This document shows positions 1 to 20,135 of a stretch of DNA of 64,000 nucleotides, in pieces. This DNA is from Candidatus Poribacteria bacterium (GTDB taxonomy: Bacteria > Poribacteria > WGA-4E > WGA-3G). The stretch's first letter is position 1. Each line of letters begins with the position of its first letter. The translations under genes and the position numbers were made by a program. The notes under the pieces were generated by a model. The model had not been told where the DNA came from. It did not search any database and saw only the letters and a program-made list of their open reading frames with translations. The DNA is taken from assembly GCA_965198235.1 (NCBI GenBank), contig OZ240248.1, forward strand, positions 1,728,001 to 1,792,000, written 5' to 3'.

Positions 1-1296
1 GACAAAACTGATAGAAAAGGACTCATCCTCTTTGACTTCCCGGAGCCTCTTGAAGCAAAAGTCGAGGTTAACTTAACAGCGAAACTTATTGATTTGGTTA
101 CCAAATCGATGAGCGATCAACCAGAAGTCGTTGAACTGATTCAGATGTTGGACGGCATCTATGTCCGCACCTACGATAGAGCGACTATTGATGAGAAGAA
201 ATTAGTTAACTATTTCAAGGAAAAGCTCAAAAAGGATGAGTGGGAGGTCCTCGTCAAAATCCAGGAAAATAGTGAAACGGTGGAGATCAATCTACTGTTT
301 GACGAAGAAAAGGTTTACGGGATTTTCGCTATCATCATCCCGAAAAGGTCCGGAGAAGCCACCTTTGTCAACATCGTCGGGGAAATCGCGCCAGAACGCA
401 TTGAGGAATTGCTCGGAAATCTAAGCAATTTCGGGGCAGTAGACATCGATTTTGGCGACAAATTGAAGGGGCAATGGAAAAGAGAGAACACACGAGAGAG
501 AGCGACGGTCATGATTCTCGGTAGTACATTTTTCACAAATCCGGGAATCAATGTATTCAATACAAGAATGGACGATGTCCTCGCGCCCAAACGTCAAAGC
601 GAAATGGAACAACTGTTGAAGCAATTGAAAGCGTTTAATCCCACCAAGATAGCCGTTTATGTAGACGAAAGGGATGATGAGGAGATTAACGCAAGCTATC
701 AAGGCTACTTGGAGGGCACTTATGAACTCACACGGAGCCTGCATGACCAATTCGGCTTTCGGTTAGCCAAACAGATGGGACATCCGAAGCTTTACTGTAT
801 TGCTGATTGGCCAAAACACCGGCCGATATATCATGAAATTGATCAGAGTTTATTAGACTACGCCACGTTTGCGGAGACGCATAATCAGGAGCACCTCTTA
901 TGGAGCATTTCCTCAAGCGGGGTGAAAGTTCGGGCGGACGTAGATGGCACGGTCTGGGTTGAACGTGAAGGATATGAACCACTGATTGACATGTATATAC
1001 GGATTAACAATCCTGAACAGATGTACGCCGACCATCAACCATATCTGCGCACCGCACGCATTGGACTCAAAGACCAATACCCAGGTGCCAATTGGGTTGC
1101 ACATTGGTGGTATGCGCACAATCTCAAGAACTTTGTGAACCTGACGCGAATCACTGAGTCTACTGATGATCGCATTCTGCTAATTATCGGTGCTGGACAC
1201 GTCTATCTGATTCAGCAGTTTTTGGAGGACTCAGGAGATTACATTGTTGAGAGTCCGCTACAATACTTGAATGCAAACGAGGCGAAAACGCCTTAA
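1..1296 (+). CDS. DUF4252-like N-terminal domain fused to DUF5694 (TraB/Tiki/EreA-like) domain; 5' end outside window
   Basis: Frame is open from base 1 (DKTDRKGLILFDFPEPLEAKVEVNL...). N-half has DUF4252-like features (KVEVNL, GIYVRTY, FVNIVGEI). C-half is paralogous to 1353 and 7182 (VMILGS, KIA.E, QFGFRLA, ILLIIGAGH). Confidence 0.75.
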   Translation, partial: DKTDRKGLILFDFPEPLEAKVEVNLTAKLIDLVTKSMSDQPEVVELIQMLDGIYVRTYDRATIDEKKLVNYFKEKLKKDEWEVLVKIQENSETVEINLLFDEEKVYGIFAIIIPKRSGEATFVNIVGEIAPERIEELLGNLSNFGAVDIDFGDKLKGQWKRENTRERATVMILGSTFFTNPGINVFNTRMDDVLAPKRQSEMEQLLKQLKAFNPTKIAVYVDERDDEEINASYQGYLEGTYELTRSLHDQFGFRLAKQMGHPKLYCIADWPKHRPIYHEIDQSLLDYATFAETHNQEHLLWSISSSGVKVRADVDGTVWVEREGYEPLIDMYIRINNPEQMYADHQPYLRTARIGLKDQYPGANWVAHWWYAHNLKNFVNLTRITESTDDRILLIIGAGHVYLIQQFLEDSGDYIVESPLQYLNANEAKTP

Positions 1297-1352
1297 TCTG
1301 TTGTTCCATTTTTTGAGGCAGGGTTAACCCACTACAGATAGGAGAAAGTTTT

Positions 1353-2273
1353 ATGAAAGTCTCAGTGAGATGCAAGTTCTATTTATCAATATTGTTCGCC
1401 GCTGTATTACTTACAGTCGGCACAGCCGAAGGCGATAATCAGACAGACCCACCTACAGGAGATACTACGCAAATGACGAAAAAACCGACGATTATCATCC
1501 TTGGCAGTTCGCACTTAGCAAATCCCGGAGCGGATGTATACAACACAAAAATGGATGATGTCCTCGCGCCCAAACGCCAACGCGAAATCGAAGAGTTGGT
1601 AACGCAACTTAAAGTGTTTCGTCCCACTAAGATAGCCATTGAGCGAGATCCCTCGCGAGACGCTGAGATTAACGCAAACTATCAAGGCTACCTGAAAGGA
1701 ACCTATGAACTCAAGCGAGGCGAAAGTAATCAGATTGGCTTTCGGTTAGCAAAACAGATGGGACATCCAAAGGTGTACTGCGTTGATTATTGGCCGAAGC
1801 AAGACCCGTTTTTTCCAGATGATTTTGATAGGGATTTGATGGACCGCTATAAGTTCGCAGAGACTCATAATCAGGAGCATTTCCTACGTCCTCCGCCTAT
1901 CGAAGGAAAGATCACTCGGGACAAAGATGGCACAACTTGGATTGAACCTGAGAAATATGTATCAATCATTGACATGTACATACGTGATAACGATCCCGAA
2001 AGCAGCCTCGCTGACCACCAGGCATATCTACGCAGCGCGCGTATTGGGTTAGGCGACCAATATCCGGGTGCCAATTGGGTCGCACATAGTTGGTACGCTC
2101 GGAACCTTAAAATCTGTATCAACCTGACACGCATCACCGAATCTGCCGATGACCGGATTCTGCTAATTATCGGTGCCGGGCATGTCTTCCTCGTCCAACA
2201 GTTTCTTGAAGATTCAGGAGATTACATCGTTGAAAGCCCATTGGACTATTTAAGTTCGGAAGAAACACAATGA
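1353..2273 (+). CDS. Secreted DUF5694-family protein (TraB/Tiki/EreA-like fold)
   Basis: Signal peptide; motifs ILGSSH, KIAIERD, QIGFRLA, WYARN, ILLIIGAGH; RBS GGAG upstream. Confidence 0.8.
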   Translation: MKVSVRCKFYLSILFAAVLLTVGTAEGDNQTDPPTGDTTQMTKKPTIIILGSSHLANPGADVYNTKMDDVLAPKRQREIEELVTQLKVFRPTKIAIERDPSRDAEINANYQGYLKGTYELKRGESNQIGFRLAKQMGHPKVYCVDYWPKQDPFFPDDFDRDLMDRYKFAETHNQEHFLRPPPIEGKITRDKDGTTWIEPEKYVSIIDMYIRDNDPESSLADHQAYLRSARIGLGDQYPGANWVAHSWYARNLKICINLTRITESADDRILLIIGAGHVFLVQQFLEDSGDYIVESPLDYLSSEETQ

Positions 2274-2328
2274 GGTAGAAGACTAAAACGCCTTCTCTAT
2301 GCTCAATCACGATTATTATTATCCTAAC

Positions 2329-2630
2329 GTGAGTTCGATAATAAAATGCAAGTGTGGTTTCCGTAGGTTGGGTAGAGCGGTGGAACTCCAGAACCATCTT
2401 ATTTATTCGGAGAATGCCGCTTTTCAATAACCCCTTCGCATAGATAGATATAGCGAAACCCAACAACCCAAACGTTATCGGTGTAAGAATGTGTTGGGTT
2501 TCACTCGTATTTTAGTGGTTTCAGGTTTATTGATGAACTTGAAGACTATCTTCTGTGTGCGATTTTTAGTAGGTTCTCGTTCAACCCAACCTACATAATG
2601 AACCCATTTCTTGCTTATATCGAATTCACG
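2329..2630. mobile_element. MITE/REPIN-like element with nested GTAGGTTGGG...CCCAACCTAC REP doublet
   Basis: Inverted ends gtgagttcgata / tatcgaattcac; flanking near-direct repeats ttatcctaac / ttatcgtaac; internal REP arms at 2363, 2453, 2493 and 2578-2594. Confidence 0.65.
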
Positions 2631-2732
2631 TTATCGTAACAAACTGCTCAAAGCGTTGCTCACTTAGCAGGTATTGGGAATGACTCACGTCTACGCGAAA
2701 ATCTCAATTTTACATGAGGTCAACAGAAAACC

Positions 2733-4499
2733 ATGTGGGACAAAGTAACATTAACCCGACCTTCATTTCGGGATCTACTCTGGTTGTTCGCACAGGTGTT
2801 GAAAGCATCGCCTTTTATCGCCGCTGTGTGGATAATCCTTGTACTCATCAATGCTGGTGCTGGTGCAGCCCAGTTGCTCGTGCTCCGAGAAACCGTTAAC
2901 ACCCTCGTCGATGCAGACCTCATAAGCAGTGCTGTTCCATGGTTGGCTGCGCTCTGCCTTCTCTTTTTCGTGGAACAAGCGATCTTAACACTCCTCCCTC
3001 TTTTGCGCGAACAACTCCGCATTAGAGCCGGTTTCGCTTTGCAGCGTGATGCCTTGCAAAAGACAGGCAAACTGCCACTGGAAGCATTTGATGAAGAGGA
3101 ATCGCACAACCTCATCAATCGCGTCGTTACCGGAGGAGATTCGAGCGTTGTCCAATTGATGCAAAATGGCTTAAACTTTATTGAATACATCCCTCCCCTA
3201 CTCACCAGTGCCGTTGTTTTAGGACTGATTTCAATTTGGATTCCCCTGATCATCATCGGCGGCGCAATATTAGTGCGAGTTTTTGAAATTCGGATGGGTG
3301 CCCGAGTGCGCCACTTTGAGGTGGAAAATACACGCAACAAACGACTTGCCGATTACTACGTCCAACTGCTAACAGAACGACGCAGTGCCGCCGAAATCCG
3401 TTTATGGTCCATCGGCGAAACCCTTCTCCAACGCTGGCGGACGATCCTTGCCCAATATCTTCGGGAACGCCTGCATATCTCATTTCAAAATGCCTACCAA
3501 GGTATTTTCCAAGTGTTTATTTTCGTAGCCATCATCGCTGGGGCACTGCTCGTTACCTCGCTTTCACAGGGAAGGGTCGAAGCCGGACTCGCCGCTTTGG
3601 TGTTAGAGGCACTCCGGAATATCACTGCAGGTATGAACTCCATGCAGTATTTCGTCATCGGTTTTGTCCAACACGCCGGCTACGGAGAAGACCTTCGCCG
3701 TCTGTTAGGAAAGAAACAGGATGAAGACGCTTCCGAAACACGGACACCTTATCCGCACCCGATACGTGAGGGTATCCGTTTGCATGATGTCGCGTATCGT
3801 TACCCGGGTTCAGACACAGACGCACTCTCCGATGTTAACGTTCACATTCATCCGGGCGAAATTCTCGCTGTCGTCGGTGAAAACGGCGCAGGGAAAACGA
3901 CTTTAGCGCACATCTTAGCAGGCTTGCGTTCCCCGACAGCAGGACACGTCACAATAGACGGTATTGATACTGCCACAATCTCATCCGAAGACCTCCGGCG
4001 TGCTTGCACCGTCGTGTTTCAGCATCCCGCACGCTATCCGACGACCCTACGCGAGAACCTGGCTTTGGACAGTACTGATCCCTCCGATGCACATGTTGCA
4101 GAGATCTTAACCCAAGTCGGATTGCCATCAGAAAGGTTCCCGCTAAATACGTTTTTAGGTCCCGAATTCGGGGGTGTAGATTTCTCCGGTGGTGAATGGC
4201 AACGCGTTGCTATTGCTCGTAGTCTGATAAAAGAAGCGGGCGAATTTGTCATTTTTGACGAACCCACGGCAGCTCTGGATCCTCTCGCTGAGTTGGAAAT
4301 TTTTCAGCAGTTTGTCGAATTGGTAGACGGTAAGACTGCCCTGCTCATCGCTCATCGACTCGGACCCACACGGCTTGCCGATCGCGTGGTTGTTTTGGAC
4401 AGTGGATGCATTGTAGAAATCGGGAATCCCACTGAACTCCTACAGCAAAATGGAAAATACGCTGAAATGTTCGCAGCACAAAGTGAGTGGTACCAATGA
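2733..4499 (+). CDS. ABC exporter, fused TMD-NBD half-transporter
   Basis: About 6 TM segments; Walker A GENGAGKT, signature FSGGEWQR, Walker B IFDEPT. Confidence 0.92.
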   Translation: MWDKVTLTRPSFRDLLWLFAQVLKASPFIAAVWIILVLINAGAGAAQLLVLRETVNTLVDADLISSAVPWLAALCLLFFVEQAILTLLPLLREQLRIRAGFALQRDALQKTGKLPLEAFDEEESHNLINRVVTGGDSSVVQLMQNGLNFIEYIPPLLTSAVVLGLISIWIPLIIIGGAILVRVFEIRMGARVRHFEVENTRNKRLADYYVQLLTERRSAAEIRLWSIGETLLQRWRTILAQYLRERLHISFQNAYQGIFQVFIFVAIIAGALLVTSLSQGRVEAGLAALVLEALRNITAGMNSMQYFVIGFVQHAGYGEDLRRLLGKKQDEDASETRTPYPHPIREGIRLHDVAYRYPGSDTDALSDVNVHIHPGEILAVVGENGAGKTTLAHILAGLRSPTAGHVTIDGIDTATISSEDLRRACTVVFQHPARYPTTLRENLALDSTDPSDAHVAEILTQVGLPSERFPLNTFLGPEFGGVDFSGGEWQRVAIARSLIKEAGEFVIFDEPTAALDPLAELEIFQQFVELVDGKTALLIAHRLGPTRLADRVVVLDSGCIVEIGNPTELLQQNGKYAEMFAAQSEWYQ

Positions 4500-6274
4500 G
4501 AAACACAAACACATTACCGAGACGCGCAGTTCTTCGCTTAATTTGGCAATTTATACGGATCGCACCATTCCCCCTTTCTGTTACCCTTCTGCTTCGTTTA
4601 ATAAACGCGGGAAATCGCGGTTTTTCGCCGGTTATCATCGCCGGATTTACAAACGCGTTAATAAATGCTGAAGGACTCCTTTTATGGATGGGGCTTTATC
4701 TCGTGCTAATGACCTTGGAGATATTAACAGATGTTTTCAACGGTGTAACACAGACGTGGTTCTCCGATAAGGCTGTGCTCCATTTCCAGCAAGACCTTCT
4801 GCGTCAAGCTGGACAAACACCGCTGCTCCATTTTTTGGATGCTGACTTTCACGATAACCTTAGCCGAGCAACGCAAGGTTTCAGTGATCGCGTTGTCAGT
4901 TGGTTTCGGAGTATTCTGGACAATATCCATAGCGTCGCGAGCGTGTGTGGACTGTTGGGCGCAGTCTTTATTATAAGTAGTGATATATGGTGTATGATCG
5001 CTCTGTTCGTCAGTTCTTCCATCATTCTCTTCACAAGGAAACCTATTGCAAGGCTTGAACTTGAGCGTGACCGGGCGGCGGCACGTCCCAACCGAACACA
5101 GGCAGCGTGGGCAACTCGACTCTACGAACGTGTCAACAGTCCAGAGGTCCGCCTCTTTACACTGCAACGCTGGTTACTTTCAAAATGGGAAGACGCGTAT
5201 CATCAGCTCGCTACGGTGGAAATAGGATCACTCAAAAGGAGAACCGCTTGGAACGCACTCGCCAACCTCAGTTCTGTCTTCGGATATTGTGTGATTGTTT
5301 TCGTCGCAGCCCGAACCGCGCATAACAGTGATCCTGAAAAAATAGCAGGTATCTTCACAGGTTTAATTGCTGCCGCCGCTGGATTACAAGGATTTCTCTC
5401 ATATATGGCACACTCTATGGGGAATCTCGCCGAACAGAGCGGTGTCTTACGCGACCTCGCGACGCTGTTCACAACACAATCCACCCAAGAGAACAGTACT
5501 GCTAATGCGACAGAGGCGCATCAGGACGGTCCCTCACCCGCCTCAGAAGCGGATGAGATGACAGTTTCAATGAACGATCTCTCATTCCAATATCCGAGCG
5601 CGACGACGCAGACCCTCAAGGAAATTACCGCAAAAATCGAACCTGGCGAAATCGTTGCCCTCGTCGGGAAAAATGGTGCTGGAAAGACAACACTCGCAAA
5701 TATATTACTCGGTTTATACGCCCCAGATAGTGGAACACTCACGTTTTCACAGAGCGACACGACTTCTGAAAAACCCACAGCAAGCGCTGTCTTTCAAGAT
5801 TTCACGAAGTTCCTACTGCCCGTCAGAGACAACGTTGGCTTTGCTGACCTGAATCGCATGCAAGACGACAACCGTATGCAGCACACACTCGACAGAGCAG
5901 GTTCCACTTTCGCACAAGAACTTGATACCTGGCTCGGACACGAATTCGGCGGACGCGATGTGTCCGGTGGAGAATGGCTGCGCCTCGCCGTTGCGCGTGG
6001 ACTTTTCCGGCAGAGTCAATTCGTCGTGTTTGATGAACCGACTGCCGCTATCGACCCGGTCGCCGAAGTTGAAATGATCCGGGAGCTACTCACCAAAGAC
6101 GAATCGCGTACCACCCTTGTTATCTCGCATCGACTTGGGGTCGCCCGCCTCTGTGACAGAATTCTCGTTTTAGATGACGGACAACTCGTTGAAGACGGCA
6201 CACACGAAGAATTACTGACGATGGATGGATTATACGCCGAAATGTGGAACGCCCAAGCGTCATGGTACGCTTAA
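4496..6274 (+). CDS. ABC exporter, fused TMD-NBD half-transporter (probable heterodimer partner)
   Basis: ATGA overlap with upstream stop; GKNGAGKT, VSGGEWLR, VFDEPT. Confidence 0.92.
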   Translation: MRNTNTLPRRAVLRLIWQFIRIAPFPLSVTLLLRLINAGNRGFSPVIIAGFTNALINAEGLLLWMGLYLVLMTLEILTDVFNGVTQTWFSDKAVLHFQQDLLRQAGQTPLLHFLDADFHDNLSRATQGFSDRVVSWFRSILDNIHSVASVCGLLGAVFIISSDIWCMIALFVSSSIILFTRKPIARLELERDRAAARPNRTQAAWATRLYERVNSPEVRLFTLQRWLLSKWEDAYHQLATVEIGSLKRRTAWNALANLSSVFGYCVIVFVAARTAHNSDPEKIAGIFTGLIAAAAGLQGFLSYMAHSMGNLAEQSGVLRDLATLFTTQSTQENSTANATEAHQDGPSPASEADEMTVSMNDLSFQYPSATTQTLKEITAKIEPGEIVALVGKNGAGKTTLANILLGLYAPDSGTLTFSQSDTTSEKPTASAVFQDFTKFLLPVRDNVGFADLNRMQDDNRMQHTLDRAGSTFAQELDTWLGHEFGGRDVSGGEWLRLAVARGLFRQSQFVVFDEPTAAIDPVAEVEMIRELLTKDESRTTLVISHRLGVARLCDRILVLDDGQLVEDGTHEELLTMDGLYAEMWNAQASWYA

Positions 6275-6369
6275 ACACAGAAATTCAATAGCATTTTACC
6301 AATCCGAGCAATCCCCAAAACCGCATCCACAACCCCTACCACAAACCTCTCCGCTTCAACAGAAAAAAG

Positions 6370-6397
6370 TACAACTTTCTTCTGCCCGTTTGTAGTA
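6370..6397 (+). promoter_or_regulatory. ECF-type promoter motif with no adjacent downstream gene
   Basis: TACAAC-15 nt-TGTAGTA; shares cgtttgtagta with the copy at 6945. Confidence 0.45.
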
Positions 6398-6448
6398 CTA
6401 ACCACACACCCCCGATAAGGGGTTAGGGGTTGAGTACTGTTTAAGGGT

Positions 6449-6755
6449 TCCCATAGGTATCAATTTAGGATTCCCCGTAGGTTGGGTTGAACGCATCTGT
6501 GAGGTCTGGTGCAAGGGGCTCAAATATAGGTCAAATCCAAGGTAGCCTCATAGACACCCAAGAGTCGAGTGAAACCCAACTTCATATAAACATAGGGTGC
6601 GTCTTGAAGTGTTGGGTTTCGCTGTGGCGTTAGTATGTTTACGCGTCTTGGAAAATCCGATTTTTTTGTAGCATGGGCACTTTGTTCTTATACTTCGCTC
6701 AACCCAACCTACGATGCTGCGATGCAGTTTTTTCTAAAATTGACGGCTATGGGTC
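6449..6755. mobile_element. MITE-like element with ~21-bp imperfect TIRs, 12-bp flanking direct repeat and internal REP doublet
   Basis: ctgtttaagggt at 6437-6448 and 6756-6767; ends cccataggtatcaatttagga / tctaaaattgacggctatggg; GTAGGTTGGGTTGAACG at 6477 and CGCTCAACCCAACCTAC at 6696-6712. Confidence 0.75.
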
Positions 6756-6944
6756 CTGTTTAAGGGTGCCCAAGTGATTCTAAAATCTACCATAGTTTGT
6801 GCCTCTGAGAACGCAAACTCTCACTGCGAGGCAGGTTTATGCTAAGAAAAGGCTCCCGATCCGAGACCCTTTTCAATGAAAAACCGGGCTTGATATCTAA
6901 AGTTTTGAAAATAGCAACTCGGGTTATATTAAGTTGGAAAAAGG

Positions 6945-6973
6945 TGCAACTATTTTGGAACTCGTTTGTAGTA
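6945..6973 (+). promoter_or_regulatory. ECF-type promoter upstream of sigma remnant and DUF5694 gene
   Basis: TGCAAC-16 nt-TGTAGTA with T-rich spacer start. Confidence 0.55.
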
Positions 6974-7040
6974 ACGATAACCTCACTTTTTAACAGCAAG
7001 TTTTGGCTTGCAAGCTGCGCCAAAAGAGCGAAGATGCAAT

Positions 7041-7148
7041 ATGACAGAAGATCAATTTCTTGAGTTTGTCCATCAACACGAAGCTTAGGTTTATCAGTAC
7101 ATCTTCTATCTACTCGGAAATCGGGAAGATGCGAAGGATATAACCCAA
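7041..7148 (+). pseudogene. ECF sigma factor N-terminal (region 2) remnant
   Basis: Translates MTEDQFLEFVHQHEA*VYQYIFYLLGNREDAKDITQ; TAG at 7086-7088; truncated after the D..Q motif. Confidence 0.75.
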
Positions 7149-7181
7149 TCAACCACACGACAGAAAATAGGAGAAAGTGTT

Positions 7182-8144
7182 ATGCAACGCTTATTCAAAT
7201 GCCAGTTCTATTTGATAATGTTATTCGCCGCTGTGCTATTTATGATAGGCGCAGCCATAAGTGATGATCACACAGATGTATCTACACAGGAGATTCAGCA
7301 AATGCCCCAAAAACCGACGGTCATGATCCTCGGCAGTACGCACTTGGCGAATGATGGATTGGATGTTTATAATACGAAAATGGATGATGTCCGCGCTCCG
7401 AAACGCCAACGCGAGATCGAACAGTTGGTTGAACAACTCAAGGAATTTAAACCTACCAAGATAGCTCTTGAACGGGATGAAAAAACGCATGGTGCTGGAA
7501 CGCAAACAGAGTATCAAGGCTACCTGAAAGGAACCTATGAACTCAAGCGAAACGAACATGACCAGATTGGCTTCCGATTGGCAAAGCAGATGGGACATCC
7601 GAAGCTCTACTGCGTTGATTACCGAATTGATTACCGAAAAGATGACCCCATCATTCCTTTTGATGACTTTGATTTGACTTTGATAGACTACATTGGGTTC
7701 GCAAAAACACACAATCAGGAACACCTTCTGCCTCCGCCACCTACTGAAGGGAAACTGACTCAAGGTGAAAAGGGCGTAACTTGGATTGAACCTGAGAAAT
7801 ACGTACCAATCATTGACATGTACATACGAGGGAACGACTCCGAAGGCATACGCATGGATCATCAACAATATATACGGTGGATCGCGCGTGTCGGGCTCGG
7901 CGACCAATACCCGGGGGCGAATTGGGTTGCCCATAGTTGGTATGCCCGAAATCTCAAGATTTTTGTGAACCTGACGCGGATCACCGAATCTGCCGATGAC
8001 AGGATTCTGTTGATTATCGGTGCTGGGCATGTTTTCCTCGTTCAGCAGTTTCTTGAGGATTCGGGAGATTATATCGTTGAAAGTCCGCTAAAATACTTGA
8101 ATGCGGACACTGCAGAGAAATCTACATCCGAGGAGACCGATTGA
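7182..8144 (+). CDS. Secreted DUF5694-family protein
   Basis: Close paralog of 1353..2273, including the same upstream ataggagaaagt RBS context. Confidence 0.8.
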   Translation: MQRLFKCQFYLIMLFAAVLFMIGAAISDDHTDVSTQEIQQMPQKPTVMILGSTHLANDGLDVYNTKMDDVRAPKRQREIEQLVEQLKEFKPTKIALERDEKTHGAGTQTEYQGYLKGTYELKRNEHDQIGFRLAKQMGHPKLYCVDYRIDYRKDDPIIPFDDFDLTLIDYIGFAKTHNQEHLLPPPPTEGKLTQGEKGVTWIEPEKYVPIIDMYIRGNDSEGIRMDHQQYIRWIARVGLGDQYPGANWVAHSWYARNLKIFVNLTRITESADDRILLIIGAGHVFLVQQFLEDSGDYIVESPLKYLNADTAEKSTSEETD

Positions 8145-8419: not shown

Positions 8420-8560
8420 TATAATAGTTGAGAAGAAAGAACACTTTTTTACGTCAGACTTAAGTCTCTGATATTGAACCTACATCCTTGAATACACAAC
8501 AGCTAAAAAATCTAATCGGGAATCGGGAAACACAGATTTCACTATAATTTGGAGGATAAA

Positions 8561-9865
8561 ATGCGCATAGTCGAGGCGGTATCCGTCGGAATATCTGCGA
8601 TTCATAGCAACAAAATGCGTTCGTTGTTAACGATGCTCGGCATTATCATCGGCGTCGCTTCAGTATTAGCGATGATAGCGATTGGTGATGGTGCCAAGGA
8701 GATTGTCCGGCAAGATGTACAGAAGTTAGGTGGGGCAAATCAGTTCTTTGTGCTCCGGTCTCGGCACAAGCGCGTAAACAACCGGCTGGTCCGTATTCGA
8801 CACAATGAATACCTGAAATATGGTGATGTGTTAGCAATTGAGGCAGAATGTCCATCCGTTAGTGCAGCCACACCGCAAATGTGGAACTGGGGAGGCGTGC
8901 TCATCCAAGCTTCAGGCGGCACGGAAACCCGTGCAGGTTGGAACGGTGTAGATGCTAACTATACAACCATAATGGACTGGAACGTTAAAGAGGGACGTTT
9001 TATTACAGATGAAGACGTTAGAAACGCATCAAGAGTTTGTGTGCTTGGAGACGAGGTCGCAACCGCCTTGTTCGGTGATAAATCCCCATTGGGACAAGAA
9101 ATTAAAATCGCACGAGACAGCGACTATCACAACCGGTTTGGCGTAAAAAAAGACGGAAGGCGATACACGGAGCGCTTCACGGTTGTTGGAACATTTGTGC
9201 CGAGAGGGACAAATCTCCGGTTCGGTGTCAGTTTTGACAGCCTTGCCTTTATCCCTATATCAACCAGCCAAAAACGCTTCATTGGCACCGATGAAATTCA
9301 GAATATCACGGTCCATGCACATAACGTCAAGGATGTTCCTAAGGCGGTTGAAGAGGTAAAATCTATTCTCCGAAAACGGCATAGAAATCAAGACGACTTC
9401 ATCTACATCTTTGAGATGCATAAAGGTATGGCGCAGTTAGATAAAATCAGCAGAATCATAAAAATCACCTTAGGTAGCATCGCCGGTTTCTCGTTGTTCG
9501 TCGGCGGGATCGGGATTATGAACATGATGTTAGTTGCTGTTACCGAACGCACTCGCGAAATTGGACTGCGGAAGGCACTCGGTGCCAAACGATTGGATAT
9601 TCTACTACAATTTCTAATAGAGTCAGTGATCATGTGTGGTGTAGGCGGCACAATCGGCGTTGGGTTGGGCATTCTCGCTGGTGAAGGGATGGCGATGCTC
9701 GCCGTCAAAATCGTCAAAATTGTTCCCGAATGGCCCGCTGTTATCTCCATGCAGTGGGTATTGATCTCGGTATCGGTCTCGGCGATAATCGGCATCTCCT
9801 TTGGCTTGTATCCTGCGCTAAAGGCATCATCGCTTTCCCCTATTGAAGCCCTTCGCAAAGATTAG
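8561..9865 (+). CDS. MacB/FtsX-family ABC permease
   Basis: RSLLTMLGIIIGV, periplasmic domain, GGIGIMNMMLVAVTERTREIGLRKALGA, C-terminal PALKASSLSPIEALR; GGAGG RBS. Confidence 0.92.
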   Translation: MRIVEAVSVGISAIHSNKMRSLLTMLGIIIGVASVLAMIAIGDGAKEIVRQDVQKLGGANQFFVLRSRHKRVNNRLVRIRHNEYLKYGDVLAIEAECPSVSAATPQMWNWGGVLIQASGGTETRAGWNGVDANYTTIMDWNVKEGRFITDEDVRNASRVCVLGDEVATALFGDKSPLGQEIKIARDSDYHNRFGVKKDGRRYTERFTVVGTFVPRGTNLRFGVSFDSLAFIPISTSQKRFIGTDEIQNITVHAHNVKDVPKAVEEVKSILRKRHRNQDDFIYIFEMHKGMAQLDKISRIIKITLGSIAGFSLFVGGIGIMNMMLVAVTERTREIGLRKALGAKRLDILLQFLIESVIMCGVGGTIGVGLGILAGEGMAMLAVKIVKIVPEWPAVISMQWVLISVSVSAIIGISFGLYPALKASSLSPIEALRKD

Positions 9866-9967: not shown

Positions 9968-10190
9968 CCTTAGAAAATTGCGTAGGTCCTATCTAATTGA
10001 GAACCCTCTATACCCAAACAGCACCTATGACAGAATAGAATGAAGCTTAAAGAGGACCGCGCAAAACGGCGTAAGATTGTTTGGATTGAATAAAGAACGG
10101 AACCCGGTTAAAATACTGCGTAGTTGGAAAATGAGGAATATTGTTGACTTTCCTTTCAAAAGCGACTTTTTCGCTTCTTTTGCAGAATTA

Positions 10191-10218
10191 TGCACCCTTT
10201 TTTTCTTAGTTCGCGTCA
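10191..10218 (+). promoter_or_regulatory. ECF-type (probably autoregulatory) promoter
   Basis: TGCACC-17 nt-CGTCA, about 115 nt upstream of the sigma gene. Confidence 0.55.
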
Positions 10219-10331
10219 CTATAGTGAAGTCAATTGATAGGGTGCCTCTTCGCAATTTGTAACCCTCCTATCTACGAAACATGGAAGTTGTATAAGTTCC
10301 TTTGATAAAATGACACTTCTGGAGATGTCTG

Positions 10332-10751
10332 GTGAGAAACGACGATATTGTATTGATTCAACGCATCCTTGCGGGTGACGCAATTGCCTTTGAGAGCCTG
10401 GTTAGAAAGTACCAGAAACGGGTTCACACGCTCGCATGGCGGAAAATTGGGGATTTTCATATCGCCGAGGATATTACGCAGGAAACCTTCCTGCAAGTCT
10501 ATCAGAAATTGGAAACTCTGGAGGATCCGACGCGGTTTCCAAGGTGGCTTTATGTGATTGCGGATCGCCTCTGTATCGCTTGGCTCCGAAAAAACCAGCG
10601 ACAAACTGAACTGCTGGAAGACACTGACATCTCAGAAATAGAGACAGAGGCGTATTCCCGATATATCGCGACGGAACACGCGAAAACTTTTGCTGAAGCG
10701 CGACGCGACTTGGTAGAAGAGTTGCTTGCGAAGTTGAAGGAAGGCAACCGA
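10332..10751 (+). pseudogene. ECF sigma factor truncated at the start of region 4
   Basis: Region 2 intact (AEDITQETFLQVY, FPRWLYVIA); similarity to the 17084 paralog ends at LLAKLKEGNR, then switches to dnaN-like sequence in another frame. Confidence 0.8.
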
Positions 10752-10753
10752 AG

Positions 10754-11101
10754 GTGCGTACAGTTGTGCGGAAAGAACCCATTTTGCATGCGACACAGCG
10801 GATTTCGTCAATCTCAAATCCGAAAACCTTTAAGGTCTGTTTAGAGATAGAGGAGCAACAGATTCGGATTTCGGCGGAAACCCCCGAGCCAAATGAAGAG
10901 TATGAAACATTAGCAGTGGAATCCAGCACGGGGAGTATCCGTATCGGTTTTGATGCGCGGCTGCTGATCGAGACACTCGCGCACATCGGAACGGAGTCTC
11001 TGGCACTGGAGTTCTCGGGGGCGTTGGATCCTGTGATTGTTAGACCGATTGGTGAGGAAGGACATATCTGCCTCATCATGCCGATGCTCTTGAAATCGTG
11101 A
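10754..11101 (+). pseudogene. dnaN: DNA polymerase III beta clamp, C-terminal domain III only (paralogous fragment)
   Basis: RISSIS...V.LEI....IRISA...E..E.LAV.....IRIGFD.RLLIETL..I....L.LEF.....PVIV......CLIMPMLL matches beta-clamp domain III; no RBS of its own and no dnaA/recF context. Confidence 0.8.
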
Positions 11102-11136
11102 TAGCACCTTCTTTTGAAAAGTTTTTGACAGCTTGT

Positions 11137-11238
11137 AAGTTATAGCGAAACCCGAAAATATGTAGACACCTTGGTGAGCAAAGGTCCCTCTCCTTCGCTG
11201 GCGGGGTTTCTAACCCCGCCTATCCACAATGTCAAAGT
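11137..11238. repeat. REP-containing insertion abutting the truncated phyH gene
   Basis: Contains palindrome ggcggggtttctaaccccgcc (about 11199-11220); layout resembles the element at 39963-40060. Confidence 0.45.
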
Positions 11239-11740
11239 AGGGGCACCTCCACTCTATTGGCATCAAGATTGGTACTATTGGAATGATCCAATTAGCTGTG
11301 CGCCTTGGCCTCAACATATCTTTATGAAGTATTATCTTACTGATACAACACCAGAAACCGGCTGTTTAAAGGTTATTCCCGGTACACATCGCAAGCGCAT
11401 TGATTTACACGATCAACTTCTGTATGCAAGCAAACTTGGTAATGTTTTACAGCCAGGATCGGAATCAAAGGAAAAATATTCTGTGATGTTCAGTGACCAT
11501 CCGGATCAGGTGGATGTTTGCGTCAAAGCAGGTTCATTAGTGATACGAGACACACGCCTTCTGCATTCAGTACGAAAAAACTATACGGACAGACGACGCA
11601 CAATGCTTCTCGTATGGACCGCCCGTCCAAAAACCATCCCAGACTATTGGAACGATGAAATTTCTGAACCCGTTTTGAATCGAGATGAAAACAAGGACTA
11701 TCCCAGTTCACAGATCCCCAATGAATTTTTAAAAAGGTAA
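11239..11740 (+). pseudogene. Phytanoyl-CoA dioxygenase (PhyH) family, 5'-truncated
   Basis: WHQD, GCLKVIPGTH, RLLHS..N....RR; N-terminal domain absent and replaced by repeat-derived sequence. Confidence 0.75.
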
Positions 11741-11759: not shown

Positions 11760-13325
11760 ATGATGTTACGAACGCTAATACGTCAAGAACTCCTGATTCA
11801 TCTGATGAGTGCGCGTTTTTTTGCTGCGGTCGTCATTACACTCCTGCTTGTTGTTGCCAATACGTTTGTCTTGATCGGCGCGTATGAAGAACGTCTCGCC
11901 GACTATAGCCAGAAGGAAGCTGTGAATCGTGAGAATGTCGCGTCGACCTCCACCTATTCGGTCTTAAGGTTAAAGGTTCAGCGTCCTCCCAACCCCCTGA
12001 GTCTCTTTAGTGCTGGCTTAGAAACGCGTTTTGGTAGTGAGATTGACATAGCCTTTGACAGCGTGCCAGCCCTCTCAAACCCCATAGTTGATGTCAGACC
12101 AGAGGAAGAGCAGTGGGCATTTGGCAGCGTACCGTCCCTCTCAAGCCCCGGAGCACCCCTCGGTATAAATAACCCATATCTGCATCTCTTTTCACAGATA
12201 GATCTTGTCTTTATCTTTCAAGTTGTGTTGAGTCTACTGTCCCTGCTTTTCGCTTATGATGCCATTGCCGGAGATTGGGAAACCGGCACCTTGCGTTTGG
12301 TGCTTTCACACCCTGTCGGACGCGGAAGTGTCCTGCTTGCCAAATATATTGCGGCGATGGTTTGCCTGCTACTCCCCGTGTTGATGAGCCTACTGCTCAC
12401 ACTGATTCAGTGTTCCCTGGCGCGTTCGCTGCAATTCAGCACAGATGATTTTCTACGAATTGGCGGCATTGTTTTAACGACAATCGTCTACCTGTCGGTT
12501 TTCTACCTGATCGGTCTTCTCGTTTCCGCTATAACCCGTCGTGCTGCCACATCCCTGATGCTCTGCATGTTCATATACGTAGTTCTGGTACTCGTCTATC
12601 CAAACTGGAGCCGATTTGCCCTGAACCCAATGGGCAACATGCGTGCAGAAAAAATATCCACTGACAGGCGGATAGCGCAGATTCGGGAAGAAGCAAATCG
12701 AGAACGGAATCGGTTCTTGGCGAGTAGTCCGCTTAAGGGAGAACCCCCGATATTTTCAGATACCGAAGGGATTTCAACGCTCTTTAGTGGAGCGGGATAT
12801 TTCTTCCTCGGGGACTTCCCTCGGGTTAACCTTGAATTGAAAAACGCAGCAGCCCCCTTGGCACTACACTTCCGCCGTTATTATGCATTCGCCGCGCCCC
12901 TGCAAATCCGGAGTGCCGAAAAAGTCGGCTTCGTCGGTCAGCAACTGGTGGCGCAGACATCCCTCCGGCAAGCACAGTCGGATGAACGTCTCATGAAGCT
13001 CAGTCCTGCGAGTCTCTACACGTTTGCTACCGCTGCGTGGGCAGGCACCGATTTAGACAGCATGGTGGATTATGTCCAAACCGCGCGGGCATACCGACGT
13101 ACCCTCATTGACACCTTTCATGAAAGAGATACCTTCGGGAGTCTACAGTGGTTTGCCCCGAATCAAGGGAATATAGACTGGTCGATCCTACCTCGCTTTC
13201 ACTTTGAGCGGTCAGAAGTCGGCATCAACGCGCAGCGCGCCCTGCCTGAACTGTTTTTGCTGTTATGCACCAATATCGTCCTATTCATGACGACATTTTT
13301 GATTTTTCTTAAAGTTGAAGTGTAG
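11760..13325 (+). CDS. ABC-2 type permease with large extracytoplasmic loops
   Basis: LLFAYDAIAGDWETGTLRLVLSHPV...LLAKY motif; multiple TM helices. Confidence 0.88.
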   Translation: MMLRTLIRQELLIHLMSARFFAAVVITLLLVVANTFVLIGAYEERLADYSQKEAVNRENVASTSTYSVLRLKVQRPPNPLSLFSAGLETRFGSEIDIAFDSVPALSNPIVDVRPEEEQWAFGSVPSLSSPGAPLGINNPYLHLFSQIDLVFIFQVVLSLLSLLFAYDAIAGDWETGTLRLVLSHPVGRGSVLLAKYIAAMVCLLLPVLMSLLLTLIQCSLARSLQFSTDDFLRIGGIVLTTIVYLSVFYLIGLLVSAITRRAATSLMLCMFIYVVLVLVYPNWSRFALNPMGNMRAEKISTDRRIAQIREEANRERNRFLASSPLKGEPPIFSDTEGISTLFSGAGYFFLGDFPRVNLELKNAAAPLALHFRRYYAFAAPLQIRSAEKVGFVGQQLVAQTSLRQAQSDERLMKLSPASLYTFATAAWAGTDLDSMVDYVQTARAYRRTLIDTFHERDTFGSLQWFAPNQGNIDWSILPRFHFERSEVGINAQRALPELFLLLCTNIVLFMTTFLIFLKVEV

Positions 13326-13383: not shown

Positions 13384-13488
13384 GTGGGGGCCAAGGCGTG
13401 TAAGCCCAACCAGCGGGCGGGCTGGATATACGAGGGAAATCGTTCCTTCTACAGCTGTTCTGACCGAACCGCAAGGAAGATTAAAGAA
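13384..13488 (+). repeat. Intergenic element (CCGCAAGG end type, atypical hairpin) ending at a start codon
   Basis: ggatatacg...ctgaccgaaccgcaaggaagattaaagaa directly before ATG 13489; homologous to the 27173 and 33164 copies. Confidence 0.65.
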
Positions 13489-14273
13489 ATGATTTGGCAT
13501 ATTGTCACACGTGAACTTTTAGACCATCTCACGAGTCTACGCTTTGGCTTAACCACGTTCATCCTTGTAGCATTAATGGTAACCAACGCCGTTGTGCATC
13601 TTCAGACACATCCGGAACGGGTTCGGAAGTATTCTGAAAAGGTTAACGCGTCTCAGACCGAGTTGAAGTCCAGAACGCAGTTGTATGCGCTGTTGCAAAA
13701 GGGACTGCCTTCGACCAAATTAGGAGCGATTTCGTGAATAAATGGGAAACTTTAAGAGAACGCCGTCAATCCGCAGAAACCTTGCAGGAAGAAGTTGCAG
13801 GGGTAGACACTTCAGAATTAGAGATCCAGCGGGAGTTCGTCAACAAAGATATGGAGATTCGGGAGCGGCTTAGCCGCCAGCATCTCGCTGCACAAAGTGC
13901 TCAAGTGCTGCACGCAAGACGGATAACCCGGTGTTCACCCGCTGCGATTGTTCAATACGCGCTTGAATCCATGGCAGGCACAGGCTTTAATCGCCATTTG
14001 CAATTCTTAGAGTCCGCCAATCTTCATATCCGACAGTTCCGAAACTTCATTACTGAAATGGATCGGAGCGATCCGGAGAGTCTTCACATCATAGGGATCC
14101 GGGAAGGCATGTCGAAAACGCCCGTCCCACCAGAGGCTATCCCGATATTTGAGGATAAGTTATCTTTTCAGGATACGCTCGACCCCGCAATGGTAGATAT
14201 ATTATTGCTCATTTTACTGCTCGGTGTATCTCTTACAAGTGCATTCCTCGTTTTCCTGCGTTCAGAGATATAA
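13489..14273 (+). pseudogene. Second ABC-2 permease with large internal deletion and frameshift near 13705
   Basis: N-terminus MIWHIVTRELLDHLTSLRF and C-terminus ITRCSPA...FLVFLRSEI parallel the upstream permease; central TM core is missing. Confidence 0.78.
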
Positions 14274-14311
14274 GCCACCGTGAGAGGCACAACGAAAAAT
14301 CAAGTGATTTT

Positions 14312-14599
14312 ACCTCCCTCGCTCGAGAACAGGGTGCTTTAGCAGTAGGCGTTGTGACACGTCCATTCAACTTTGAAGGTCGGCGTCGCGCTGAACAAGC
14401 GAAACGTGGGCTGCAGGAACTTCAAGAAAATGTTGATTCTGTCGTTGTTGTGCAAAATCAACGATTGCTCGATTCGATAGAGGCGAAACAGAAACTACCG
14501 ATGACAATACGTGAGGCGTTCCATCTAAGCGATGAAATGCTGCTCCGCGGCGTTGAAAGCAGCATCTCAGAATTCCATTCCAGTACCCTGCGAAATTAA
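14312..14599 (+). pseudogene. ftsZ: FtsZ GTPase-domain fragment (paralogous)
   Basis: TSLAREQGALAVGVVTRPFNFEGRRRAEQAKRGLQELQENVDSVVVVQNQRLL...AFHLSDEMLLRGV; lacks GGGTGTG and stops before the T7 loop. Confidence 0.85.
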
Positions 14600-16967: not shown

Positions 16968-17083
16968 TTAATAATAGAACGTGCGAACCGCATCGGACTG
17001 CTTAATTTTACAAAACTCGACATTTGATTTAACCTTTTGACGAATGCAAGCACTCCCCAATTTGTCCATTAGGAGGAAGTTTC

Positions 17084-18788
17084 ATGGAAAGAGAAGACGA
17101 TGTTCAACTAATTCGCAAAATTCTATCAGGCGACGACGCTGCGTTTGGTATCTTGGTCGAAAAGTACCAAAAAAGCGTTCATGCCCTTGCATGGCGGAAA
17201 ATCCAAGATTTTCACTATGCGGAAGAGATTATGCAAGACACCTTCCTTAGGGCATACAAAAAACTTCCGACACTCAAGAATCCCAATCAATTTGCTGGGT
17301 GGCTCTATGTCATCGCAAATCGGCTTTGCATTGATTGGATGCGAAGCCAAAAGTCTGTGATGCAATCCTTGGAGGACACACCTATTGAAGAAATCGAGGA
17401 ATCCTCTTATACACATCATATATCGGAACAGCGGATGACAGAGAGAACCGAGCGTTACCATGAACTTGTGAAAAAACTTTTGGAGAAACTGCCGGAGAAT
17501 GAACGCGCAGTTGTAACACTCTTCTATCTTGACGAAATGTCAACGAAAGAGATCAGCAAATTCGTGGGAGTGTCGGTGAATACAATTACGAGTCGACTCC
17601 ACCGAGCGCGAAAGCGTCTGCAAACAGATCATGGACCCTTGGTTCAAGAATTCTTTGGTCATTCACAATTATCAGATAATCTGAAGGAGAACATCATGAG
17701 ACAATTAGAAGAAATTCGCAGCAAGTTCAATTCATTCATGGAACAAGTGAAAGCTGACCCCGCATCAAGAGAGGATATTCTTAAGGAAGCACACAACGAG
17801 ATTGAAGATGCGCTTAAGGATGGAATCACACCTGGGTTGGTCCATCTTGCTGCCGATGATATATACCCCTATATGGGCAAACTCGGAATGGAAAAACGGA
17901 TCTCTCTACTCCGTAAGTATATGGATGACGCGCTGGAGGATACGGAGCGTTTCTGGGCGCATGACGGGTTAGTCAGTAGTCTCGCTTTTCTTGATAGAAA
18001 TCGAGAAGCTATTGAGGAACACGCTCGGCTTTACCGTTGGACGTGGGCAAGCACTTGCCGGATAAATATGTGTTGGAGACCATGCTTCCAATCTGAGCGT
18101 AGCCGGATGTTGGGCGGCGGAAGATCGTCTTGATGACTGGATTCAACTTTATAATGAAGTCTCTGAACGCTTAGAGAACCCCGGCGTGAGTTACTACAGC
18201 CGTTGCGATTTCCTGCAAACCGGAGCAGATGTCTTACGATGCAACGACAGGTTCGATGAGGCACTCCTTGGAATAGAAAAGTTGGAACGTGCTAACAACG
18301 AACCCGATTCAGAGCATTATTTTCGATTCTGGTTGATTGCCAAAGAAAATCGACTTCTCATGTACGGTAAACAGGAAGATTGGGGGCGTTTCGATCAAAT
18401 TTTTTCGGAAATGAGTGCCTATATGGAAGGAGAGTTGAAGAAACGGGATGCAGGTCAACCCGTAAATCTCAACGACCTTATGTGGTTAGCACACGATATC
18501 GGTTGTTGTCTGTTGTGGTCGAAGAAGTATAACGAGGCGAGACATTTCCTACAAGTCGCCATTGATTTGGAAGATAACAACGATTATGGGCACTTCCAAC
18601 TCGCTGTGAGCATTTGGGCTTCTGAGAAGGATCGTGAGAAGACTTTACATCATTTAAAGATCGCTCAGGACTGCTATGTGGTAAATCCCTATAATCAGGA
18701 TACGTACTACCCGACTTTCCTTGAGACCCCTGAATTTTCGGATGTAAAAGATGATAAAGAGTTTCTGAAGGTTCTGGGACAGACGTAG
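17084..18788 (+). CDS. ECF sigma factor with long helical/TPR-like C-terminal extension; frameshifted at about 18045 and 18085 (pseudogene or sequencing error)
   Basis: Regions 2 and 4 complete; AGGAGG RBS; reading continues KHLPDKYVLETM then SNLSVAGCWAAEDRL... into ORF 18186..18788 with a TPR-like end. Confidence 0.75.
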
Positions 18789-18935: not shown

Positions 18936-20135
18936 ATGAAGTTTCGTGATGCTATCACCGCGGGCGTAAAGCCCCTCGCGCAAAATAGACTCCGTGCCGG
19001 ATTGTCCATTCTCGGCATCTTCATCGGGATTGCGGGTGTGCTGTGCATGATCGCTATCGGCGATGGCGGGAAACTTATCATCGCTCAAAACCTTGAAATG
19101 ATGGGTGGTGCCAATCAAATCGCATTCTGGACACGGACTTCTATTTGGAAGGGCCGACGGCTCGTCCGACGCACTACAGAACGATATACCCTTAAGGACG
19201 CTTCTGCAGTTGAGGCAGAATGCCCCGATGTGCTGTATGTCTTGCCTAAAGTAGAAGACTTCAACACCTTTGTTAGCAGCCGAAACGGGAATCAAGCGAA
19301 AGCGCGTTTAGAAGGTATCACAACGGACTACGCTCCCGGCATGGGTTGGGCAGTTCACGCCGGCAGATTCCTCTCCGACAACGATATCGAAGATGCAAAG
19401 CAGGTCTGTGTTCTGGGTGCTAACACCGCCAGTGAACTTTTCGGAGAGGTGTCGCCCATCGGACAAGAGGTGAAGCTTCGGTATCATTGGCGGCAATCGC
19501 AGATCAGGTTACGGGTTATCGGGGTGATGGCAACAAAAGGCATGAGCCTCAGCGACACGTATTCTTTGGATGATGCTATTTCTGTGCCATTGACAACCTA
19601 TCAACAACGGGTGAAAGGTTTTCGTTACGTTGACTACTTGCTCGTCTTTTTTAACAAAGGCGCGGCAGAGGTCAACAGTATTATTGATTCCGTTAAGAAC
19701 ACTCTGCGTAAAAGACACCGAGGGAAAGATGAATTTATCGGCGTTTGGAGAGCGAAACTGACGGCTCACCGACTTTACCACATTCAAAAAGTAATAAAAA
19801 TCACCTTGGGCAGTCATTGCGGGTTTCTCACTATTCGTCAGTGGTGTCGGTATCATGAATATCTGTCTCGTTTCTGTCGGTGAAAAAACGCGTGAGATAG
19901 GTTTACGAAAATCGGTGGGGGCGAAACGGATTGACATCTTCTATCAGTTCTTGACGGAATCAATCTGTCTCTGTTTCTGTGGTGGGGTGCTCGGCATCGC
20001 CGGTGGTTGGGGTGCGGCGCACGGGATGGCATGGCTTGCGGTGCGGATTGTGCCAATTGTGGAAACGTGGCCCGTCGTCCTCTCCTGCGGGCGGCGCGAT
20101 TTTCACCTGTCGACGCACTCCACACCGAGAATTAA
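18936..20135 (+). pseudogene. MacB/FtsX-family permease with +1 frameshift (about 19815) and deletion of the last TM helix (about 20085)
   Basis: Paralog of 8561; after WPVVLS the sequence jumps to RAARFSPVDALHTEN* in another frame. Confidence 0.8.

Follow-up and report, generated by a model that had tools for sequence, protein, structure and literature searches.

A frame-broken sigma factor-sliding clamp gene in Candidatus Poribacteria and the intact fusions of its relatives

A sigma factor fragment abutting a clamp fragment

The DNA analyzed here, called the window, is a stretch of 64,000 nucleotides from contig OZ240248.1 of a Candidatus Poribacteria genome (G000; two contigs, 5.17 Mb in total). 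At 10332-11101 it carries the remnant of a gene in which an extracytoplasmic function (ECF) sigma factor meets the beta sliding clamp, DnaN. The 5′ part (10332..10752, plus strand) comprises codons 1 to 140 of an ECF sigma gene of the sigmaA type, from region 2 up to the start of region 4; sigmaA and sigmaB are our own labels for two ECF sigma types. The 3′ part (10753..11101, plus strand) encodes domain III of the clamp in the frame of 10754 and ends with a stop codon at 11099-11101. The open reading frame (ORF) at 10332..10844 matched Sigma70_r2 alone in Pfam (3.6e-16, residues 23-90). The window copy lacks region 4, which has been deleted, and so does not show the region 2 plus region 4 architecture of ECF (group 4) sigma factors that is seen in intact relatives. 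The ORF at 10754..11101 (115 amino acids [aa]) matched DNA_pol3_beta_3 (3.6e-16, profile positions 13-120 of 121); of the three clamp domains (PF00712, PF02767, and PF02768), domain III is the only one present.

The two halves adjoin without intergenic DNA or a ribosome binding site and share no more than 1 nt of microhomology where they meet. In blastn comparisons with seven relatives, sigma homology stopped at 10751-10753 (84 to 91% DNA identity) and clamp homology started at 10752-10755 (76 to 82%) in all seven, which places the deletion junction at 10752..10753 on the plus strand. When the intact fusion protein of genome G006 was used in tblastn, residues 1-145 aligned to 10332-10766 with 89% identity and residues 459-569 aligned to 10751-11083. 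The clamp part lies in the +2 frame relative to the sigma part. Because the two frames differ, the present open frame of 170 aa (10332..10844, plus strand) finishes with 29 nonsense codons, clamp DNA read out of frame, before a stop at 10842-10844, and the window copy yields no fusion protein.

Compared with the nearest relatives, about 943 to 958 bp are missing at the junction, comprising sigma region 4, the linker, and clamp domains I and II, and the length of the deletion is not divisible by three. Likewise, when 40 relatives were searched at the DNA level, the two halves were separated by about 950 bp in other members of the genus. Compared with intact orthologs at the syntenic locus, the window copy has lost essential parts as well as its reading frame. 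Window 10332-11101 is almost certainly a pseudogene, namely, the frame-breaking internal deletion scar of a gene for an ECF sigma factor, a linker, and a three-domain clamp. The original prediction had described a broken gene in which the sigma sequence is joined directly to DnaN domain III. The breakage and the direct contact are borne out, but the ancestor had a whole three-domain clamp, and the contact with domain III is the scar of the deletion.

Since the source is metagenomic and contigs broke at 10752 in three runs, we considered that the remnant might be an artefact, either an assembly chimera or a chance resemblance. In public sponge-associated metagenomes (runs X), contigs of X2, X5, and X4 that reach 10752 ran on into intact sigma region 4 or into the intact end of clamp domain II, indicating that intact alleles coexist with deleted ones in those samples. 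A 508-nt contig of run X5 (record 30) spans the junction ungapped, at 10571-11078, with flanks of 181 and 326 nt, and X5 belongs to a different study than X1, the run that best holds the window. The junction is thus not an assembly chimera. Both Pfam matches were strong (3.6e-16 each), and the flanking synteny with relatives is kept. The chance that the remnant is an artefact is negligible.

The genome encodes two full-length dnaN genes elsewhere, and the clamp fragment is 63% and 60% identical to their products. The sole dnaA match in the genome lies at C1:998684 (0.999 Mb), about 0.74 Mb from the window and far from the remnant and from both dnaN genes, in line with the earlier remark that the locus has no oriC gene context.

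Intact fusions in related genomes

In G006 and G024, one uninterrupted frame of 572 and 590 aa, respectively, was found at the syntenic locus, with the same MacB-type permease gene upstream. Both proteins matched Sigma70_r2, Sigma70_r4_2, Sigma70_ECF, and clamp domains 1, 2, and 3. From its N terminus, the intact protein consists of sigma regions 2 and 4, about 25 aa of linker, and a three-domain clamp of 364 aa, so that the clamp constitutes a C-terminal extension (a domain of more than 50 aa after sigma4) in these relatives. Uninterrupted full-length frames of 574 to 606 aa were present in 44 of the 64 other genomes of the genus, 4 of which have two copies. Shorter forms (461 to 487 aa) that end after clamp domain II occurred in seven genomes of the genus, and a 588-aa form with just 46 to 47% identity occurred in two; the copy in G079 is frameshifted. 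For 17 of the 64 genomes, no uninterrupted sigma-DnaN frame of any type was listed. The fused clamp is 62 to 67% identical to the stand-alone clamps of the genus. The inferred ancestor of the window remnant therefore exists as an intact gene in relatives, and the sigma-DnaN fusion that had earlier been reconstructed from the broken copy is now observed. In the fusions of G024 (L005:149-1921) and G004, about 18 to 25 aa are tandemly duplicated in clamp domain III (VCLEIDEQQIRVSP occurs twice), and the frame is kept.

A junction query (sigma4, linker, and clamp) was run over 176 genomes of the phylum. Junction-spanning matches were obtained in 46 of the 64 genomes of the genus and in 11 of 40 genomes of a second genus of the same family. 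By per-genome best E values, there were none in the 7 genomes from the remaining genera of the family or in the 64 genomes from ten other families. In the data searched, the fusion is confined to two genera of one family. Open frames of about 1450 aa were initially obtained for some dnaN matches, but a check of G064 did not reproduce them and revealed an ordinary dnaN gene of 367 aa.

Two large protein collections were also searched. One of them, a library of 1.84 billion representatives, gave 175,213 matches, and the best 150 of these included one full-length and one short-form fusion cluster. Two unusual relatives were also among the 150, namely, a protein with a sigma factor and clamp domains II and III (P0127, 469 aa) and a DnaN-FtsZ fusion without a sigma factor (P0126, 706 aa). 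The rest of the 150 matched either the clamp part or the sigma part alone, and many of the sigma matches carry other long extensions. A collection of 5.8 billion proteins returned at least 120 clusters, each covering 99 to 100% of the fusion query, and all 120 listed clusters carry PF04542, PF08281, and the three clamp families. Seven of these 120 are named, one of them from Candidatus Poribacteria, and all seven are called "DNA polymerase III subunit beta," which is a warning that annotation as a plain clamp subunit can conceal the fusion.

Origin by read-through into a dnaN copy

A tree of 60 clamp sequences, including three other families, was computed with Shimodaira-Hasegawa-like approximate likelihood ratio test (SH-aLRT) support. 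The clamps of the family formed one clade against the three other families (SH-aLRT, 100). Nested within the family's own dnaN radiation, the 45 sigmaA-fused clamps, three short forms, and the window fragment formed a single clade (SH-aLRT, 100), in which the window fragment adjoins the fusions of G014 and G075 (77% identity over 115 columns). The two 588-aa proteins carry sigmaB instead, and their clamp grouped with stand-alone dnaN (support, 82), which suggests that sigmaB-DnaN arose by a second, independent fusion event.

The leader of the stand-alone dnaN gene reads GGAGAT..GGA ATG, and the same letters lie in frame within the fusions, where they encode G-D/G-F-G-M. The internal ATG is retained in 50 of 50 fusions, and a Shine-Dalgarno (SD)-like GGAG, GAGG, or AGGA is retained in 49. 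The in-frame persistence of the old dnaN SD and ATG indicates that the fusion arose by read-through from the sigma gene into a downstream dnaN copy. Judging from these letters, the internal start may still yield free clamp.

The same retained start could be taken to mean that the fusion is incidental, that is, that loss of a stop codon compacted a sigma-dnaN operon and that the clamp, for example as a drug-insensitive spare, works from its internal start. Extra stand-alone dnaN paralogs do occur in the family, one of them after a pair of ATP-binding cassette (ABC) exporter genes in four of eight genomes checked. However, the frame across the junction is kept in 44 genomes at divergence down to 61% identity and also in the second genus, the linker itself is under purifying selection (ratio of nonsynonymous to synonymous substitution rates [dN/dS], 0.31), and the second, independent sigmaB-DnaN fusion exists. 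An incidental fusion is a very unlikely explanation.

Purifying selection and remodelling of the fused clamp

Across 582 to 985 pairs for the different parts, dN/dS was 0.14 for the sigma part, 0.23 for clamp domain I, 0.19 for domain II, and 0.39 to 0.41 for domain III, the least constrained; together with the linker value, these ratios indicate that every part of the fusion is under purifying selection. In 19 genomes (171 pairs), dN/dS was 0.27 for the fused clamp and 0.054 for stand-alone dnaN, so that by this measure the fused clamp evolves about five times faster.

The changes were then located in alignments of 29 stand-alone and 45 fused clamps. Of 179 columns conserved at 93% or more in the stand-alone clamps, 76 are kept in at least 90% of the fused clamps and 40 in fewer than half. 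The arginine of GR-x-TLPIL, which we take to be the DNA-contacting R24 of the E. coli clamp, is invariant in the stand-alone clamps (29/29) but was found in just 14 of the 45 fused ones. The arginine of ATDG-x-R-L is replaced by glutamine in 41 fused clamps and kept in 4, the arginine of the C-terminal MPMRL is kept in 9, and a leucine in domain I has become a newly conserved tryptophan in 42. Six of 21 conserved lysine or arginine columns drop to 56% or less in the fused copies, while YP-x-Y and LNGLYF are retained. Following the E. coli literature, we take GR-x-TLPIL, ATDG-x-R-L, and MPMRL to relate to DNA contact or to the peptide pocket.

An AlphaFold model of the fusion (mean predicted local distance difference test [pLDDT] score, 70; predicted template modelling [TM] score [pTM], 0.51) was confident for sigma2 and the clamp, weak for sigma region 4 (pLDDT, 45 to 59), and disordered in the linker (residues 180-207; pLDDT, <50). 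The clamp part matched solved beta clamps with a target-normalised TM score of 0.81 to 0.85, and its sequence matched clamps in the PDB at 3e-41. By entry title, the fold matches include clamp-griselimycin complexes (6ptr, 6pth, and 6ptv).

One alternative is that the clamp part still forms a ring, alone or with free clamp made from the internal start. Placed by the clamp loader at primer junctions or nicks, such a ring could slide and bring the attached sigma factor and RNA polymerase to newly replicated promoters. Purifying selection on all three clamp domains and the predicted clamp fold would fit such a clamp-tethered sigma factor, a disordered tether of about 25 aa would permit it, and untagged partner subunits could be translated from the internal SD and ATG. 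There are phage precedents as well: according to PMC12867686, the sole known cases in which a sliding clamp partners the promoter recognition machinery are T4, where gp45 acts together with gp55 and gp33, and Mu, where MuC acts with the beta clamp of the host. By analogy, the fusion would be a cellular, single-chain version of T4 late transcription and of MuC acting with the host clamp, a parallel that we rate as improbable. In T4 and Mu, the clamp is the replication clamp itself and is bound non-covalently through clamp-binding motifs, whereas the fusion joins a diverged clamp paralog covalently to a cellular ECF sigma factor, and the conserved basic residues have been partly lost from it. 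The losses of the GR-x-TLPIL arginine and in the lysine/arginine columns count against DNA encirclement. Moreover, the ring-closing domain III is under the weakest constraint and is absent from the short forms of seven genomes; the gene is absent or broken in about a quarter of the genus; and the parallel sigma-FtsZ fusions described below cannot act in this way. It is unlikely that the fused clamp serves as a sliding tether.

Parallel fusions of sigma factors to FtsZ and DnaE

Two genes downstream of the sigma-clamp fusion in G006 and G018 lies a gene for a sigmaB factor joined to an FtsZ GTPase domain (406 to 409 aa; L133:13693-14919 in G006 and L137:6786-8006 in G018). The sigma-FtsZ junction was detected in many genomes of the family, 61 of the genus's 64 other genomes among them, but in no other family. 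A longer relative (556 aa) combines sigmaB with complete FtsZ. In a triple fusion of 1365 aa (L185:1102-5196, minus strand, in G006), sigmaB is followed by a complete FtsZ (Tubulin and FtsZ_C) and then by the first 800 aa of DnaE, comprising PHP, palm, and fingers; the protein stops before the clamp-binding and oligonucleotide/oligosaccharide-binding (OB) regions of DnaE. Similar open frames of about 1350 to 1440 aa are present in many genomes. In the triple fusion, the FtsZ part has what we take to be the GTP-binding and T7-loop motifs, and the DnaE part has what we take to be the usual catalytic motifs.

The occurrence in one lineage of fused copies of self-assembling machines (the DnaN dimer, the FtsZ polymer, and DnaE) would be explained if the extensions reported assembly state over the cell cycle. 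The fused clamp would pair with DnaN or the replisome, so that the sigma factor would be sequestered during replication and freed when replication stops. The sigma-FtsZ fusions would do likewise with the division ring, a corollary that we consider no more probable than the scheme itself. The apparent retention of the FtsZ and DnaE motifs in the long fusion would also suit it. A core regulator should be indispensable, yet no uninterrupted sigma-DnaN frame was listed for the 17 genomes mentioned above, and the whole cluster decays in the genome studied here. The fivefold-faster divergence of the fused clamp from its supposed partner also speaks against such pairing, and the neighboring genes are those of transporters and not of the cell cycle. 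We regard a cell cycle sensor of this kind as quite unlikely.

Other sigmaA paralogs of the genome carry different extensions: a membrane helix with BNR/Sortilin propellers, LRR with GHL15, HTH_20, and Peptidase_M61_N. Most of the sigma paralogs of about 900 to 1050 aa (L138 to L152) have a hydrophobic helix about 45 aa past sigma4, followed by BNR/Sortilin repeats, and their sequences suggest membrane-anchored sigma factors with large outer domains. The linker stretch FMIQEALDITI of the sigma-clamp fusion was considered as a Q-x-x-L-x-I clamp-binding motif and was rejected: the sigmaA-HTH_20 paralog has it too, and all 16 paralogs compared have related forms, so that it is a feature of the sigma family and not of the clamp fusion.

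Transporter neighbors and a shared promoter-like element

An ABC transporter component gene lies on the same strand within 1.5 to 2 kb of 36 of the 50 fusion genes. An ABC-2 permease gene is downstream of 23, a MacB-type permease gene accompanies 22, an ABC exporter gene is upstream of 9, and a PhyH gene is downstream of 12. In the window, the conserved upstream neighbor is an intact MacB-type ABC permease gene (8549..9865, plus strand; Pfam MacB_PCD and FtsX), also present in G006 and G024. The conserved downstream neighbor is an intact ABC-2 permease gene with DUF3526 by Pfam (11760..13325, plus strand).

A promoter-like element of 40 nt (AGAATTATGCAC, 16 nt, and CGCGTCACTATA) was located with a regular expression at 10184..10223 on the plus strand, 109 nt upstream of the sigma start codon. 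The same element precedes 36 of the 50 fusions, mostly at 107 to 132 nt, with some loci at about 47 nt and one at 205 nt. The strict motif has eight sites in the genome versus zero or one in each of 10 mononucleotide shuffles, and all eight lie 70 to 270 nt upstream of a gene: four sigmaA genes and genes for an ABC ATPase, an ABC exporter, an ABC-2 permease, and a T2SSE ATPase. A looser expression, TG[CT]A[CAT]-N14-20-CGCGTCA[CT], gave 15 matches against about 13 expected by our arithmetic and was dropped in favor of the strict form. The motif-bearing exporter gene heads a same-strand row of two exporter genes and the second dnaN paralog (G000:C1:4347327-4352378); this is the row found in four of the eight genomes checked (L192, L193, and L194). 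The dnaN paralog in the row is stand-alone and faster evolving, with a gene of 367 aa in an open frame of 371 aa. Contigs of an RNA library (X4) span parts of this DNA, and one of them begins at 10225, which is a weak hint of a transcription start, as contigs show neither expression levels nor transcript ends. Contigs in three runs join 10205 to 11140 through 39 other letters, so that the whole remnant is replaced; these may represent another allele or a paralogous locus with the same promoter element.

No anti-sigma Pfam family was found among the neighbors at five loci and in the window, in a scan of ORFs of at least 110 aa. In PADLOC-DB 2.0, the fusion and its neighbors matched no known anti-phage defense family; there was generic ABC ATPase and permease likeness, plus one weak match (3.5e-4). 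No biosynthetic cluster was seen at the fusion locus.

A candidate one-component sigma factor with a clamp as its input

ECF sigma factors with C-terminal extensions, such as ECF41 and ECF56 (SnoaL-like), ECF42 (TPR), and ECF238 (Cys-rich), have been described as the second most common mode of ECF regulation. With these, the fusion shares a sigma2 plus sigma4 core, a cytoplasmic extra domain directly after sigma4, and paralogs with varied extensions, and by analogy it most likely works as they do. Unlike theirs, its extension is a complete paralog of an essential replication protein. The main text and the part of the supplement consulted of the ECF re-classification (PMC7826278) mention no DnaN, clamp, polymerase III, FtsZ, or tubulin extension, and the full-text literature searched describes no sigma-DnaN or sigma-FtsZ fusion. 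Built-in sensor domains are well established among ECF sigma factors, but a whole sliding clamp as such a domain is undescribed in the literature searched.

The deletion scar, its intact relatives, and a regulatory role for the clamp together form an account that we think is, on the whole, probably right. Its mechanistic part is more tentative. From the domain order and the neighboring genes, the intact protein may be a one-component ECF sigma factor with the clamp domain as its input and an output that includes ABC transporters. The sigma part of this cytoplasmic protein would bind RNA polymerase and would read the promoter ATGCAC-N17-CGCGTCA ahead of its own gene and of ABC transporter genes. 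The clamp part would act as the regulatory input: its occupancy or assembly state, sensed via the remodelled peptide-pocket region, would set the availability of the tethered sigma factor. A signal on the surface of the replication clamp, be it an inhibitor, a clamp-binding protein, or replication status, would in this way lead to transporter expression. The fused clamp shares with housekeeping DnaN the three Pfam clamp domains, the predicted clamp fold, and 62 to 67% identity; it differs in its N-terminal sigma factor, fivefold-higher dN/dS, changed pocket-region and C-terminal residues, and lack of dnaA context.

Several points weigh against this one-component sensor. The genomes compared are kin, so the neighbor counts are not independent, and the second-genus and sigmaB-type loci have no transporter neighbors in six of eight cases. 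The link between the motif and a regulon comes from eight sites in one genome, whose own fusion is dead. Because the motif also precedes paralogous sigma genes, any of those factors, or another sigma factor, may be the one that reads it. The AlphaFold model shows no confident contact between sigma and clamp (pTM, 0.51). Finally, with an SD and an ATG retained inside the gene, the clamp could be produced separately as well, in which case the fusion would be less important than it looks.

The signal, if there is one, might be an attack. The sigma factors with copies of DnaN, FtsZ, and FtsZ plus DnaE found in this one sponge-associated family of Poribacteria might be integrated-decoy sensors, a possibility that we view with doubt. 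Natural products or phage proteins would hit the copy, and the attached sigma factor would be released or activated to turn on efflux and other countermeasures. The window would then hold the dead remnants of two such sensors, which we consider equally doubtful. Plant nucleotide-binding leucine-rich repeat (NLR) immune receptors carry integrated decoy domains, and the griselimycin gene cluster presumably carries an additional dnaN as a target copy for self-resistance. A duplicated inhibitor target in a resistance or sensing context is common to both and to the fusion; a sigma factor output is known for neither. The decoy reading, which is that of the original prediction, is favored by the FtsZ and DnaE parallels and by the transporter context and disfavored by the remodelled pocket region: as far as the motif assignments hold, residues that are invariant in stand-alone clamps have been replaced in the fused ones, which argues against a faithful decoy.

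If the clamp is a sensor or decoy, the fusion would show how a bacterium monitors attack on, or the state of, its replication machine, and a decoy role would make it the bacterial equivalent of the decoy domains integrated into plant immune receptors. With sigma-FtsZ and sigma-FtsZ-DnaE among its relatives, the arrangement seems to be a general design and not a one-off.

Decay of the surrounding gene cluster

Between 10.3 and 20.1 kb of the window, six genes are broken, as judged against proteins of G006, G018, and G080. The first is the sigma-clamp remnant itself. It is followed by a 3′ fragment of a PhyH-family dioxygenase gene whose 5′ third is deleted (11171..11740, plus strand; PhyH profile positions 100-212 of 213, corresponding to residues 103-265 of the 270-aa G080 protein). 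A second ABC-2 permease gene (13384-14273) has an internal deletion and a frame change. The sigmaB-FtsZ gene is reduced to a 3′ remnant (14309..14599, plus strand; Tubulin, 6.8e-8, profile positions 148-189 of 190) in which the sigma part and most of FtsZ are deleted; it matches just residues 328-407 of the 409-aa G006 protein. The ORF at 17084, cited earlier as a sigma paralog with a long C-terminal extension, does have region 2, region 4, and such an extension but belongs to a 597-aa-type gene (17009-18782) that is itself broken by a frame change. A second MacB permease gene (18936-20088) is also broken. As the whole cluster is decaying in this genome, none of the system works here. Upstream of the cluster, three genes for secreted DUF5694 proteins and an ABC exporter gene pair occupy window 94-8144, and the same families flank the fusions of G006 and G018.

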